This document shows positions 8,222 through 27,944 of a DNA stretch of 27,944 nt, piece by piece. The DNA lies in assembly GCA_049969855.1 (NCBI GenBank), contig JBMFOB010000018.1, forward strand, positions 1 through 27,944. Reading direction: 5' to 3'. The notes under the pieces were generated by a model that was not told where the DNA came from, ran no database searches, and saw only the letters and a list, made by a program, of their open reading frames with translations. Every line of letters starts with the position of its first letter. Position 1 is the first letter of the stretch. Origin of the DNA: Candidatus Bathyarchaeia archaeon (GTDB taxonomy: Archaea > Thermoproteota > Bathyarchaeia > Bathyarchaeales > Bathycorpusculaceae). A program made the position numbers and the translations under genes.

Positions 8222-8638
8222 TTGGCAGTTTACATTGACAGCAACGTTTTCTTTTATGCAAAAATTCTGGATCGCCAATATGGTGGAGCATGCGCTGAAA
8301 TTTTGAATAAAATAGAGAAAGACGAGCTAAGGGCTGCTACGTCAACTTTGGTTATAGTTGAATTAGCGAATGCCTTGAGTAAATATGGGCTAAGTGATGA
8401 AGTGAAGGATGTTGTTGACGCAATTTTTTCTTTGAATATGAGCATTTTTGAAGTTGACCCATTAGATGTAAGAACCGCCGCTAATGTTTATGACGAATTT
8501 AGAATAAGCCCATACGATTGCGTTCATATAGCAATTATGAAGAGAGCGAGTATTAGAGAGATTATCTCCGCAGACAAAGATTTTGACAAAATAACTTGGA
8601 TAAGACGATTGGATCCCAAAAATTTTAAGATTAAGTGA
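8222..8638 (+). CDS. vapC: PIN-domain toxin (VapC)
   Basis: VYIDSNVF, VIVE, YDCVHIA, IISADKDFD. Start moved from 8150 to TTG 8222, which follows SD GAGGT at 8211-8215. Confidence 0.88.
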   Translation: MAVYIDSNVFFYAKILDRQYGGACAEILNKIEKDELRAATSTLVIVELANALSKYGLSDEVKDVVDAIFSLNMSIFEVDPLDVRTAANVYDEFRISPYDCVHIAIMKRASIREIISADKDFDKITWIRRLDPKNFKIK

Positions 8639-20592: not shown

Positions 20593-20691
20593 TGGCGGGC
20601 CCGCCGGGAATTGAACCCGGGACCCCCGGGTTTCTTCTTTTGGGCTTTTGTTTAAAAGCCCGGTGCTCTATCCTTACTGAGCTACGGGCCC
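20593..20691 (-). tRNA. tRNA-Lys(TTT) with 21-nt canonical 37/38 intron (20632-20652) and encoded CCA
   Basis: GGGCCCG/CGGGCCC acceptor, G73, CCGGG-CTTTTA|A-CCCGG anticodon arm, CCGGG-TTCAATT-CCCGG T arm. Central helix CTTT/GAAG with AA|A bulge. Confidence 0.93.
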
Positions 20692-25227: not shown

Positions 25228-27681
25228 TTAATATTCGCTTACGAAGCTTATTTCGGGAAATTCTCGAATTTGTCTACCATCACCTTTCTCAGATAAAATT
25301 TCAAGTTGTAAGATTTTGCATGTTCCAGCAATGTCTTCCTTGTTTTCGCTGATTATTTGTGCAAACTCGCTCTTTCCAGCGTATATTTTAACCCGTTTAA
25401 TAGGCGAGTTCAAGGGTTTTCTCTTCTCAGCCTTTTCGCGTCTGATCTCAGTTATCAAGGCTATCACTAAGTCGCCTTTCCGCTCAGCTTCCTCATTCAC
25501 AATTTCCATTTTTACTTCTGGCCAAGGAGTTATTTGTAGGCTTTTTTGTCCTATAGCTTCTGCGTATATTGTTTGGTAAATTTCCTCTGTTATGTGAGGC
25601 GTTATAGGCGCCAGCAGCTGAATTATGCGATACAAAACATTGTAAAGAGTGAATTGGACAGCTTTCTTTTTTTGTTCTCCGTAAATTTCTGGTTTGTAAA
25701 GTCTGTCCTTCACAGCTTCGATGTATTCGTCGCAGAAAATATGCCACGTAAAATTGCGAACTTCTTCAAGGACTATGTTAAATTGGCAGTTCTCTAACGC
25801 TTCTGTAACTCTTTGCGTAACTTTCTCAAGTTTGCTCAGAATCCATTTGTCTAAAAGTTGCAAGTCGCCCTTCTCTTCTGGTTTATAGTCTCTTATTTGG
25901 GTGCCAGTGAATCGTGCCGCATTCCAAAGCTTAGTCAAGAAGCGCCTTCCATAATCCACGTCAGACCAGCGAAATGGAACATCCGAACCAGTTGCTCCAC
26001 CGCCAGCTGCCCACTGTCTCGTTGCATCTGCGCCATATTTTGAAAAAACTTCTAAGGAAGGCACATAATTGCCTAAAGACTTGTGCATCATCCGCCCGTC
26101 TGTGCCCAAAACCATGCCATTAATTAGACAACTCTTGTATGGTTTCTCATCGAACAAAGCAAGATGTCTAACCATTAAGTAGTAGGCCCATGTGCGGATA
26201 ATGTCAACGCCGGATGGATGCATATCAGCTGGGAAAAGCCTACGCCAGTCCTTCTTGTCTGGCCAGCCGGCGTGAACCGCGCATGTTATTGAGGAATCAA
26301 ACCATGTGTCTAAAACGTCTCTTTCAGGCTTGAATTTGTTTGAGCCGCATTTTGGGCATTTTGTAATTTTTGGGTTTTCTATTTTCGGGTCTATTGGTAG
26401 CCATTCTGGTTCTGCTAGAATTGTTTCGCCGCAGTTTTGGCAGTACCATATTGGTATTGGCGTTGCAAAGACCCTTTGGCGGGATATCACCCAGTCCCAG
26501 TCAAGGGATTTTGCCCAGTTTATTAGGCGATATTTCATGTAGTCTGGGTACCACTTAACTTCTAAAGCGTTCTTTTCCAGTTTGTCCGTTAGAATGCGGG
26601 TTTTCATGAACCATTGTTCTCTTTCAAGAATCTCTATTGGAGTGTGGCATCTCCAGCAAACGCCAACTTCCTGCGTAAGCGTTTCAGTCTTTTCTAATAG
26701 CCCATCATTTTTCAAATCTTCGATTATGGCTTTCTTAGCCTCTTCAATGGTTAGTCCAGCATATTTTCCAGCATTCTCCGTCATTCTGCCTTTCTCGTCT
26801 ATGCACATTATGACTGGCAAATTATGTTTTACAACACTTTTTACGTCTGCCTTGTCTCCGTAAGTGCATATCATCACTACGCCTGTTCCGAATTCTGGTT
26901 CAACAAGTTCGTCTGTTATTATTTCAACTGTCCTGTTTGTTGTTGGTACATGAATCTTTTTGCCAATATATTGTTTGTAGCGTTCGTCGTGGGGGTTTAC
27001 GGCAACTGTTACGCATGCTGGAATCAGTTCCGGTCTTGTTGTGGCTATTGTTAGGAAACCGCCGTCATCCATTTTAAACCTAATATAATGTAAGGTGGCG
27101 GTTCTCGTTTCATATTCCACTTCAGCATCTGCTATGGCTGTTTCGCATCTCGGACACCAGTTCACTGGATGCGTTCCACGGTAAATGAAACCTTTCCTAT
27201 ATAACAGAACAAAGGAGAGTTGGGTGCGCCTCCAATAGTCCGGGTCCATAGTCTTATATTCGGTTGTCCAGTCTATTGAGCATCCAAGCCTATTGATGGC
27301 TTCCTTCATAAGTCCTATATATTTTTCCACATGTTCTTCGCAAAGTTTTCTAAACTTGTCTGGCGGAATGTCTGTCTTCTTGATTTTGTGTTTCTTTTCA
27401 ACTTCCACTTCTGTTGGCAAGCCGTGGCAGTCCCATCCTTGGGGAAAATGAACATTGTATCCTCTCATGCGTTTGTAGCGGGCTACTATGTCAAAATATG
27501 TCCAATTTAACACTAAACCCATGTGAAATTCGCCAGAAGGATAAGGTGGAGGAGTGTCAATGCTAAAGGTTGGGCGCTTTTTGTCCTTCCAGTCGAAACG
27601 GTAAACACCCATCTCCTCCCACTTTTCTTGCCATTTCCTCTCAATTTCGATTGGATTGAATTCTTTAGGCAAAGACTTCAC
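25228..27681 (-). CDS. valS: Valine--tRNA ligase (archaeal type)
   Basis: IDTPPPYPSG, GWDCHGLP, WCPRCETAIADAEV, ATTRPE, FGTGVVMICTYGD, DWVISRQR, DVLDTWFDS, MHKSLGN. Confidence 0.95.
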   Translation of the reverse strand: MKSLPKEFNPIEIERKWQEKWEEMGVYRFDWKDKKRPTFSIDTPPPYPSGEFHMGLVLNWTYFDIVARYKRMRGYNVHFPQGWDCHGLPTEVEVEKKHKIKKTDIPPDKFRKLCEEHVEKYIGLMKEAINRLGCSIDWTTEYKTMDPDYWRRTQLSFVLLYRKGFIYRGTHPVNWCPRCETAIADAEVEYETRTATLHYIRFKMDDGGFLTIATTRPELIPACVTVAVNPHDERYKQYIGKKIHVPTTNRTVEIITDELVEPEFGTGVVMICTYGDKADVKSVVKHNLPVIMCIDEKGRMTENAGKYAGLTIEEAKKAIIEDLKNDGLLEKTETLTQEVGVCWRCHTPIEILEREQWFMKTRILTDKLEKNALEVKWYPDYMKYRLINWAKSLDWDWVISRQRVFATPIPIWYCQNCGETILAEPEWLPIDPKIENPKITKCPKCGSNKFKPERDVLDTWFDSSITCAVHAGWPDKKDWRRLFPADMHPSGVDIIRTWAYYLMVRHLALFDEKPYKSCLINGMVLGTDGRMMHKSLGNYVPSLEVFSKYGADATRQWAAGGGATGSDVPFRWSDVDYGRRFLTKLWNAARFTGTQIRDYKPEEKGDLQLLDKWILSKLEKVTQRVTEALENCQFNIVLEEVRNFTWHIFCDEYIEAVKDRLYKPEIYGEQKKKAVQFTLYNVLYRIIQLLAPITPHITEEIYQTIYAEAIGQKSLQITPWPEVKMEIVNEEAERKGDLVIALITEIRREKAEKRKPLNSPIKRVKIYAGKSEFAQIISENKEDIAGTCKILQLEILSEKGDGRQIREFPEISFVSEY

Positions 27682-27712
27682 GTTCCAACATCCCAGTAGC
27701 CATTAACTTTAG

Positions 27713-27726
27713 GAAAGATAAATATA
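27713..27726 (+). promoter_or_regulatory. BRE/TATA-like element (GAAAG-ATAAATATA) for the riboswitch transcript, possibly shared with divergent valS
   Basis: About 25-30 nt upstream of the aptamer 5' end. Confidence 0.5.
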
Positions 27727-27753
27727 CGAGTAAATAACAATTACCCCACCCAA

Positions 27754-27850
27754 GGTTTGAGGGAGCTGGGTTATGACCCGGCTGAGAGGACGGCTGAAAG
27801 TCGTCGACCCCTAGAACCTGACCCAGATAATACTGGCGGAGGAAAGAACC
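27754..27850 (+). ncRNA. TPP (THI-box) riboswitch aptamer
   Basis: P1 GGTTT/GAACC; P2 AGGG/CCCT; P3 GCTGGGT-TATG-ACCCGGC; invariant CTGAGA; extra hairpin GACGGC-TGAAA-GTCGTC; ACCTGA; P5 CCAG-ATAATA-CTGG; CG-G-AGG closing P4. Confidence 0.9.
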
Positions 27851-27944
27851 GTGGAACAAAATAAGAGTATTTCAAAAGCTCCGGAAACAAAGATATTCGC
27901 TGAAATGATAGTTTTCATCGCTCTTGCAGAGGCTCTGTACATTG
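27851..27944 (+). CDS. 5' part of a probable thiamine transporter (ThiT-like ECF S component), truncated by window end
   Basis: GTG start 8 nt after GGAGG. MEQNKSISKAPETKIFAEMIVFIALAEALYI resembles the T+..aE...f.AL...L first helix of ECF S components, and lies directly downstream of a TPP aptamer. Confidence 0.6.
   Translation, partial: MEQNKSISKAPETKIFAEMIVFIALAEALYI

Follow-up and report, generated by a model that had tools for sequence, protein, structure and literature searches.

A TPP riboswitch abutting the thiT start codon in Bathyarchaeia, with probable control at the ribosome-binding site

How can a vitamin-sensing RNA govern its gene when no base separates its closing helix from the start codon? 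The question is raised by the end of contig JBMFOB010000018.1 (GenBank assembly GCA_049969855.1), from a Candidatus Bathyarchaeia archaeon. This stretch of 27,944 nt, hereafter the window, is one entire contig (C18) of a 1.28-Mb genome that comprises 49 contigs and is 93% complete. A preliminary description, made from the letters, had placed a complete thiamine pyrophosphate (TPP) riboswitch here in front of a ThiT-like transporter gene. On the sequence evidence set out below, the element is probably a functional TPP riboswitch that makes up nearly all of the 5′ leader of a monocistronic thiT mRNA in a thiamine-auxotrophic bathyarchaeon, and that would control the ribosome-binding site (RBS) in translation.

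A complete TPP aptamer directly before thiT

A cmscan of the whole window returns the TPP family RF00059 at 27749-27862 on the plus strand, scoring 61.6 bits where the gathering score is 54.3 (E 5e-10). The match covers model positions 1-105 of 105 and is not truncated, so the riboswitch is complete, as proposed. It is also the single TPP match in the 1.28-Mb genome (E 5.4e-12 in the genome search). The interval first described begins at 27754, which is the first base of P1, and the Rfam match starts 5 nt earlier. All four conserved motifs that had been named, CTGAGA, ACCTGA, TAAT and CG-N-AGG, are located in the sequence (Table 1). Folded without constraints, 27749-27875 adopts the canonical structure as its minimum free energy (MFE) fold (-40.9 kcal/mol, z -2.96, 0 of 200 shuffles as good), and this fold yields P1, P2, P3, P3a, P4 and P5 unaided, the full set of aptamer helices that had been claimed. 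Three positions are non-canonical in the cmscan alignment: A27760.C27810 in P2, A27764 with a deleted partner, and G27820.G27839.

For comparison, we examined 43 loci. One of them, the Bathyarchaeota thiT locus L039, gave no aptamer by motif search (no Infernal search of it was made), and three are duplicates, which leaves 39 unique bathyarchaeal loci. Locus counts here and genome counts below are samples. Absence from an incomplete genome proves nothing, and since kin are not independent, there are fewer independent events than the counts suggest. RNAalifold on the 39 unique copies recovers P2, P3, P3a, P4 and P5, with compensatory, double-sided changes in 9 of the 27 predicted pairs, including pairs in P3a and P5. 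Examples are alignment pair 54/62 (CG in 25 copies, UA in 10 and GC in 2) and pair 87/96 (AU in 29, GC in 10). P1 is not returned by RNAalifold because the ends of the alignment are ragged; it was assigned sequence by sequence with a simple helix finder, with no shuffle control for this helix. Among its variants are GGTTT/AAACC, GGTCT/AGACC and AGGGT/ACCCT, the last two of which are compensatory. The helix finder left P1 doubtful or found none in about ten loci, mostly outside the family (L009, L024, L025, L026, L028, L030, L037, L038, L041 and L043). By every feature that could be tested here, the element is a member of RF00059.

Table 1 Features of the thiT leader and its surroundings (window positions)
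Feature	Position	Strand	Basis or remark
Promoter-like block: BRE-like AGGAAAG (27711-27717) and TATA-like ATAAATATA (27718-27726)	27711..27726	+	Read from sequence; putative promoter function
Predicted transcription start region	27749..27753	+	TATA position and usual archaeal TATA-to-start distance
TPP aptamer, P1 5′ strand to P1 3′ strand	27754..27850	+	Rfam alignment and MFE fold
P1	27754-27758 / 27846-27850	+	
P2	27760-27763 / 27809-27812	+	
P3	27764-27771 / 27776-27783	+	
P3a	27789-27795 / 27799-27805	+	
P4	27817-27819 / 27840-27842	+	
P5	27823-27826 / 27833-27836	+	
L5	27827-27832	+	
CTGAGA (CUGAGA junction, pyrimidine-sensor side)	27782-27787	+	Invariant in 39 of 39 aligned copies
ACCTGA	27816-27821	+	Read from sequence
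TAAT (L5 UAAU)	27828-27831	+	Read from sequence
CG-N-AGG	27837-27842	+	Read from sequence
GGAGG: P4 3′ strand (AGG) and probable Shine-Dalgarno sequence	27838..27842	+	Begins at -13 of the GTG start
thiT 5′ end, GTG start, 31 codons, cut by contig end	27851..27943	+	Identity to congener ThiT
Valine--tRNA ligase (ValRS) gene, divergent upstream neighbour and synteny anchor	25228..27681	-	NF009687, 1030.5 bits against a cut-off of 738

Directly behind the aptamer lies the membrane-protein open reading frame (ORF) that had been expected there. It starts with GTG at 27851 and runs off the contig after 31 codons; the contig end, and not a window edge, terminates it, because the window is the whole contig. 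The 31-residue fragment is 94% identical by alignment (90% by tblastn) to the N terminus of a 182-aa ThiT encoded by G002, a genome of the same genus that we call the congener, and it matches a ThiT hidden Markov model built from relatives (E 3.9e-6). The congener protein scores 149.4 bits with PF09515 (cut-off 25.8) and 134.3 with the TIGR02357 equivalog (cut-off 108.45), and at full length it matches the ThiT chains of solved structures (PDB 3RLB and 4MES, E 2e-16). These matches point to a ThiT-like transporter downstream. Identity to bacterial ThiT does not exceed about 47%. The thiT product is the S-component of an energy-coupling factor (ECF)-type thiamine importer. A spurious antisense frame had also been remarked on in the ORF listing; two antisense ORFs are listed, at 27665-27859 and 27811-27942.

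Bacterial relatives of this element, the TPP riboswitches or THI elements of RF00059, include the thiM and thiC leaders of E. coli. Another example is RSthiT, the thiT leader of Lactococcus lactis (PMC8862789). The bathyarchaeal element has the same helices, the same junction motifs, a full-length match to the same model and the same regulated gene, thiT. Its layout is different. Our bacterial comparison comprises a motif search that caught 17 of 65 thiT loci, many of them near-identical copies, and an unbiased Rfam scan of 20 of the 65 that found 18. In 18 of these 20 loci, 33-220 nt separate the end of the model from the ORF match, whereas here the model overlaps the start by 11 nt. A run of five or more T stands between aptamer and ORF in all 17 motif-caught loci, whereas here the spacer is 0 nt and no terminator-like site was found. 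The variable N of CG-N-AGG is T in 17 of 17 motif-caught bacterial copies and G in 37 of the 39 bathyarchaeal ones, and the promoter in the window appears to be of the archaeal TATA/BRE type (BRE, B recognition element). The element is thus a real riboswitch of an ordinary class in the expected gene context, and what sets it apart is how little stands around it.

Predicted control of translation from within the aptamer

The TATA-like box that had been noticed just upstream of the aptamer, ATAAATATA, is preceded by a BRE-like block, and the two together form a putative promoter. A strict TATA-like pattern occurs in 22 of the 39 unique loci, and in 19 of these it begins 43-46 nt ahead of the GAGC anchor in P2/P3; loci without the strict pattern have other AT-rich boxes at the same place. 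The usual archaeal distance from TATA box to transcription start is about 26-27 nt. Placed accordingly, the start would leave a leader of at most about 5 nt before P1, and the RNA would begin almost directly with P1. A sigma-70 promoter scan gave a single hit, which was disregarded because such promoters have no bearing on an archaeon. The stretch from the TATA box to the predicted start, 27727-27748 (CGAGTAAATAACAATTACCCCA), is itself conserved across many genera (…AACTAAATAACAATTAyCCC…), more than is expected of a spacer, which makes it a candidate promoter-proximal element or protein operator. Raised read depth over 27762-27827 in four runs was considered as a signal of expression and rejected, since it reflects many organisms that share the conserved aptamer.

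At the other end of the leader, the P1 3′ strand GAACC closes at the base before GTG, with 0 nt between helix and start. Among the 30 unique thiT loci, the helix finder places P1 against the start in this way in 19. The P4 3′ strand AGG is part of the sequence GGAGG, a probable Shine-Dalgarno (SD) sequence, and the genome has the matching anti-SD at the 3′ end of its 16S rRNA (GGATCACCTCCT). Across the genome, GGAGG peaks at -14 to -12 (13, 12 and 12 of 856 ORFs, compared with 0-1 further upstream), and the GGAGG of the window, at -13, falls on this peak. GGAGG is present in 29 of the 30 unique thiT loci. The start codon follows the AGG of GGAGG by 7-9 nt in 26 of the 30 and by 6, 12 or 37 nt in others, and L013 carries ACG at the start position. 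Where the Rfam consensus has U at the N of CG-N-AGG, the bathyarchaeal copies almost always have G, and this G completes GGAGG but puts a G.G mismatch where the consensus has a G.U pair with the G of ACCUGA.

These features suggest a compact mechanism. Transcription would probably start a few bases before P1, from the conserved BRE/TATA promoter. A separate expression platform is lacking: the P1 3′ strand closes directly before GTG, and the ribosome-binding GGAGG would itself be the P4 3′ strand. When TPP is plentiful, its binding would lock P4/P5 and P1, bury the SD and the bases up to the start, and leave thiT untranslated. When TPP is scarce, the weak helices would breathe and the ribosome could load. 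In computed ligand-free ensembles, the SD has a mean unpaired probability of 0.48, and P4 is present in the MFE structure of 12 of 30 loci. Such a half-accessible SD fits marginally stable helices that the ligand would tip closed.

Translational riboswitches that hold the Shine-Dalgarno sequence inside the aptamer are known in other classes, such as SAM-II and preQ1-II. The apparent likeness is that ligand-stabilised aptamer helices bury the RBS with no alternative-hairpin platform. The difference is that the aptamer here is of another class, that its conserved CG-N-AGGGA segment appears to have been co-opted as the SD, and that the host is an archaeon.

The same aptamer could instead act on transcription or RNA stability, by oligo-U termination or ligand-dependent decay. 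Archaeal terminators need a U-run only, and the simple scan that found 0 terminator-like sites in 27600-27944 was not designed for that. In addition, the thiC loci and some cytX loci of the family have 76-87 nt from aptamer to start, which shows that other platforms exist in the lineage. At thiT, however, the start comes directly after P1, there is no run of at least five T in the first 93 nt of the ORF, and the probable SD sits inside the aptamer at optimal spacing in 26 of 30 loci, in addition to the null terminator scan. We therefore consider control of transcription or stability unlikely and prefer control of translation initiation.

Several points weigh against a functional translational switch in this copy and are gathered here. 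Among the public sequencing runs that contain the window sequence there is no RNA run; run X21, labelled metatranscriptomic but 'probably DNA', contains fragments from relatives only. The assembly holds only 31 codons of thiT, and the remainder is absent from the other 48 contigs. The SD statistics rest on crudely called ORF starts. The ensembles were computed at 37 °C with generic parameters, and the best-matching run for this organism is labelled a hot-spring metagenome. Thi​T loci from other families in which the aptamer likewise abuts the start carry GAAGG or GTAGG, so a perfect SD is not required and the preference for G may be partly phylogenetic inertia. Likewise, GGAGG is kept in family loci where the thiC or cytX start lies 76-87 nt further on, so the G may be partly inherited rather than selected. 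Finally, the window copy has an A.C mismatch in P2 (27760/27810) that is the sole one among the 39 (pair 17/73, 'AC:1') and is confirmed in a contig from run X1; its position 27843 is A, against G in at least 90% of copies; and its score of 61.6 bits is 10-17 below the congeners (72.7-78.2), the lowest value among the genus's five genomes.

The last three observations could mark a decaying, non-functional aptamer, weakened by the P2 mismatch and by AGGAA in place of AGGGA. Position 27843, however, reads G in the X1 Logan contig at a depth of 52/52, so the A probably reflects either a minority variant or misassembly close to where the contig stops. The score still exceeds the Rfam gathering score and the fold is canonical. 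Strong selection on the locus is also to be expected, since the genome appears to rely on thiamine import. Decay of the window copy thus seems very improbable, and we retain the functional riboswitch as our reading.

One departure at the start codon was seen elsewhere. L013 and L035, which have the same sequence, carry ACG where relatives have ATG, 8 nt after GGAGG, with the 182-aa ThiT frame intact and no canonical in-frame start within 90 nt. This ACG either serves as a non-AUG start or marks a start lost very recently.

A promoter-riboswitch module with apparently exchangeable genes

The preliminary description had stressed how rare riboswitches are in archaea. That framing does not suit this lineage, where the element is the rule. 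Within the family, 32 of the 36 other genomes carry RF00059; among genomes sampled from the order's other families, 8 of 24 do. Over the class, it occurs in 93 of 151 sampled genomes, the window's own included (92 over the cut-off), and in 49 of 80 genera. A sample of the phylum gave 30 of 151 genomes; in the other classes of the phylum the element is present in 20 of 131, concentrated in four families. Several genomes of one bathyarchaeal family (f24) hold up to four TPP riboswitch copies.

Knowledge of archaeal TPP candidates, in Thermoplasmatales and others, goes back to 2002 (Rodionov et al. 2002, cited by McCown et al. 2017, PMC5473149). The pertinent passage of the latter names TPP and fluoride as the commonest riboswitch classes in archaea, a domain that uses riboswitches sparingly, and gives riboswitch counts of 79 for Euryarchaeota, 6 for Crenarchaeota and 1 each for Korarchaeota and Thaumarchaeota; that passage does not list Bathyarchaeota (PMC5473149). 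Those candidates are of the same class as the element described here and also stand before thiamine transport or biosynthesis genes. They differ in phylum, the present host belonging to Bathyarchaeia within Thermoproteota (TACK). In the part of a further source that treats the matter, the Thermococcus fluoride riboswitch is given as the only one experimentally determined in archaea as of 2021 (PMC8241225). Our literature search returned nothing relevant on riboswitches in Bathyarchaeota or Bathyarchaeia, and supplementary census lists could include such matches.

Behind this widespread switch, the gene varies. The gene directly downstream in the 39 unique loci is thiT in 30, an NCS1/cytX-like permease in 5, thiC in 3 and a ParA/MinD-like ATPase in 1. 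One of the NCS1 permeases was run against NCBIfam and scored 297.9 with the CytX model, just under its cut-off of 309.85. At 20 loci drawn from eleven further families in the class, we found thiT (5), thiW (5), thiD/thiN (1), thiC (1), a solute-binding protein (1) and NCS1 permeases (1 tested and 2 by similarity), with four ORFs that had no Pfam match. Three loci of other bathyarchaeal families (L134, L146 and L148) place the riboswitch before predicted membrane proteins of 178-221 aa without a Pfam match, which are candidate unrecognised thiamine-related transporters. The ATPase locus (L020, G017:C1) has a 66.3-bit TPP riboswitch directly before the ParA/MinD-like P-loop ATPase gene at 1604-2341, and no thiamine gene. 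In another genome, two TPP riboswitches with near-identical 3′ flanks lie 2.3 kb apart (L143 and L144, G080:C19:6091-6202 and 8438-8549), one preceding thiW and the other an NCS1-type permease.

The clearest variation is within the genus. Two of its five genomes, the congener G002 and G001, have the same slot between ValRS and fdhD, and both fill it behind the same promoter and riboswitch. The slot holds thiT alone in the congener (L126, G002:C6 1603-2151), as evidently it does in the window's genome. In G001 (L127, G001:C8 1602-5403) it holds an NCS1/cytX-like permease gene, a thiD/thiN fusion, thiW and a gene for a 191-aa P-loop protein. This looks like an exchange of cargo at a fixed regulatory site. 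With the ValRS gene of the window as tblastn query, a match is found in 27 of 42 motif-bearing loci, that is, 24 of the 38 other unique loci; in 20 of them, about 100 nt separate the ValRS start from the aptamer CUGAGA downstream of it, as in the window.

The description had suggested that the riboswitch was possibly acquired with the transporter gene. Since the module stays fixed beside ValRS while the gene behind it varies between thiT, cytX-like and thiC, it looks resident and not a passenger of thiT. A horizontal transfer of riboswitch and thiT from bacteria would be in keeping with the nearest non-archaeal ThiT proteins that we found, which share 35-47% identity and come from Clostridia, Lachnospiraceae among them, and with the TPP riboswitch that 18 of 20 such bacterial thiT loci also have. 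Against it stand the arrangement of ValRS, promoter and riboswitch, kept in 24 of 38 other unique loci whatever gene follows, the wide occurrence of the element in the class and in other classes of the phylum, and the bacterial layout, with its platforms of 33-220 nt and T rather than G at N. Transfer, or a bacterial chimera at the contig end, is in our judgement quite unlikely, with some room left for an ancient co-transfer of riboswitch and thiT.

A chimeric contig end in particular is highly unlikely. GC content is even along the contig (0.38-0.45). A 1,152-nt Logan contig of run X1 spans 27686-27944 with one difference and extends about 890 nt past the contig end; X1 is the best-holding public run, is labelled a hot-spring metagenome and may be the source sample. 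The congener gene order is ValRS (leftward), riboswitch and thiT (rightward), then fdhD and an ATP-grasp gene (both leftward). In the window's own genome, the fdhD and ATP-grasp side is supplied by contig C35, which begins inside fdhD and is collinear with the congener locus from about 0.8 kb further on. Together with the recurring ValRS arrangement, these data leave no sign of the bacterial junction that had been raised as a concern. The X1 contig over riboswitch and thiT has a depth of 52, compared with 12-17 for exact-match contigs over ValRS. The riboswitch-thiT locus is probably common to several co-occurring strains, and such sharing may explain why the contig of this metagenome-assembled genome (MAG) breaks here.

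Taken together, the observations permit a broader proposal, which we advance tentatively and hold somewhat short of even: that Bathyarchaeia use a minimal, platform-less translational switch, possibly with a P1 toggle, within a ValRS-side module that serves as a dock for cargo. As part of it, the conserved 3′ segment CG-N-AGGGA would have been recruited as the SD, with N fixed as G and the outer P4 pair sacrificed. In the absence of TPP, the P1 5′ strand GGUUU may toggle onto the internal GAACC of ACCUGA, breaking P4 and freeing the SD. The alternative GGUUU-GAACC pairing appears in the centroid fold of 27749-27875, and GGTT stands at the P1 5′ place in 26 of 39 copies. The clearest compensatory variants of P1 (L005 and L010) would weaken this pairing, however, so we hold the toggle as a hypothesis. 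The promoter-riboswitch by ValRS would be the fixed dock at which close relatives exchange thiT, cytX-thiDN-thiW or thiC.

Thiamine supply and wider context

The gene content of the genome bears on what the riboswitch might serve. Searches of the 93%-complete genome gave no match to ThiC, ThiE (TMP-TENI), ThiN or the catalytic domain of thiamine pyrophosphokinase (TPK). ThiD is represented by a marginal Phos_pyr_kin match only (27.2 bits), and Thi4 by weak partial matches of the kind that other flavoproteins give. ThiL is clearly present (276.1 bits against 184.15). Contig C3 carries two ABC_tran genes and a CbiQ/EcfT gene in a row, of the ecfA-ecfA'-ecfT type, then a SIS-domain gene, with no adjacent S-component; a module of this type without its own S-component is a further likeness to known ThiT systems. 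The gene set suggests a thiamine auxotroph in which ThiT, docked on a shared ECF module, takes up the vitamin, and the single riboswitch of the genome looks to guard that importer. The genome also encodes a second PurM-fold paralogue 3.7 kb away from thiL (G000:C15:18724-19578, L121 1501-2355), which falls below both relevant cut-offs (HypE 127.6 against 251.6, ThiL 101.6 against 184.15). This HypE/ThiL-like protein is a candidate for the step from imported thiamine to TMP or TPP.

Rodionov et al. reportedly described, in 2017, a ThiR-type repressor with a ThiN domain that regulates thiamine genes. The preliminary description had set RNA sensing here against this protein, and PF10120 indeed has no match in the window's 93%-complete genome. 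In the genus-mate G001, ThiN occurs only as a fusion to ThiD, that is, as an enzyme.

The element class is a textbook one, so the gain is incremental. Interest is added by the high prevalence in Bathyarchaeia, by the compactness of an SD inside the aptamer, and by the exchange of genes behind a fixed switch. A large uncultured archaeal class would, on this evidence, routinely sense vitamin B1 by RNA rather than by a ThiR-type protein. About 100 nt take in promoter, aptamer and start codon, a small and conserved test object that can be used to ask how a metabolite keeps an archaeal ribosome off a leadered mRNA. Close relatives appear to have the same vitamin need and different uptake or salvage genes behind the same switch, which is of relevance to how sediment and hot-spring communities depend on vitamins.

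The archaeal, and more narrowly bathyarchaeal, origin of the DNA had been proposed from the letters, and it holds: an intron-bearing tRNA and the 16S 3′ end fit an archaeon, and the near relatives are Candidatus Bathyarchaeia MAGs. The tRNA gene, at 20596-20691 on the minus strand, has a 22-nt intron in its anticodon loop and is the sole other match in the Rfam scan of the window.

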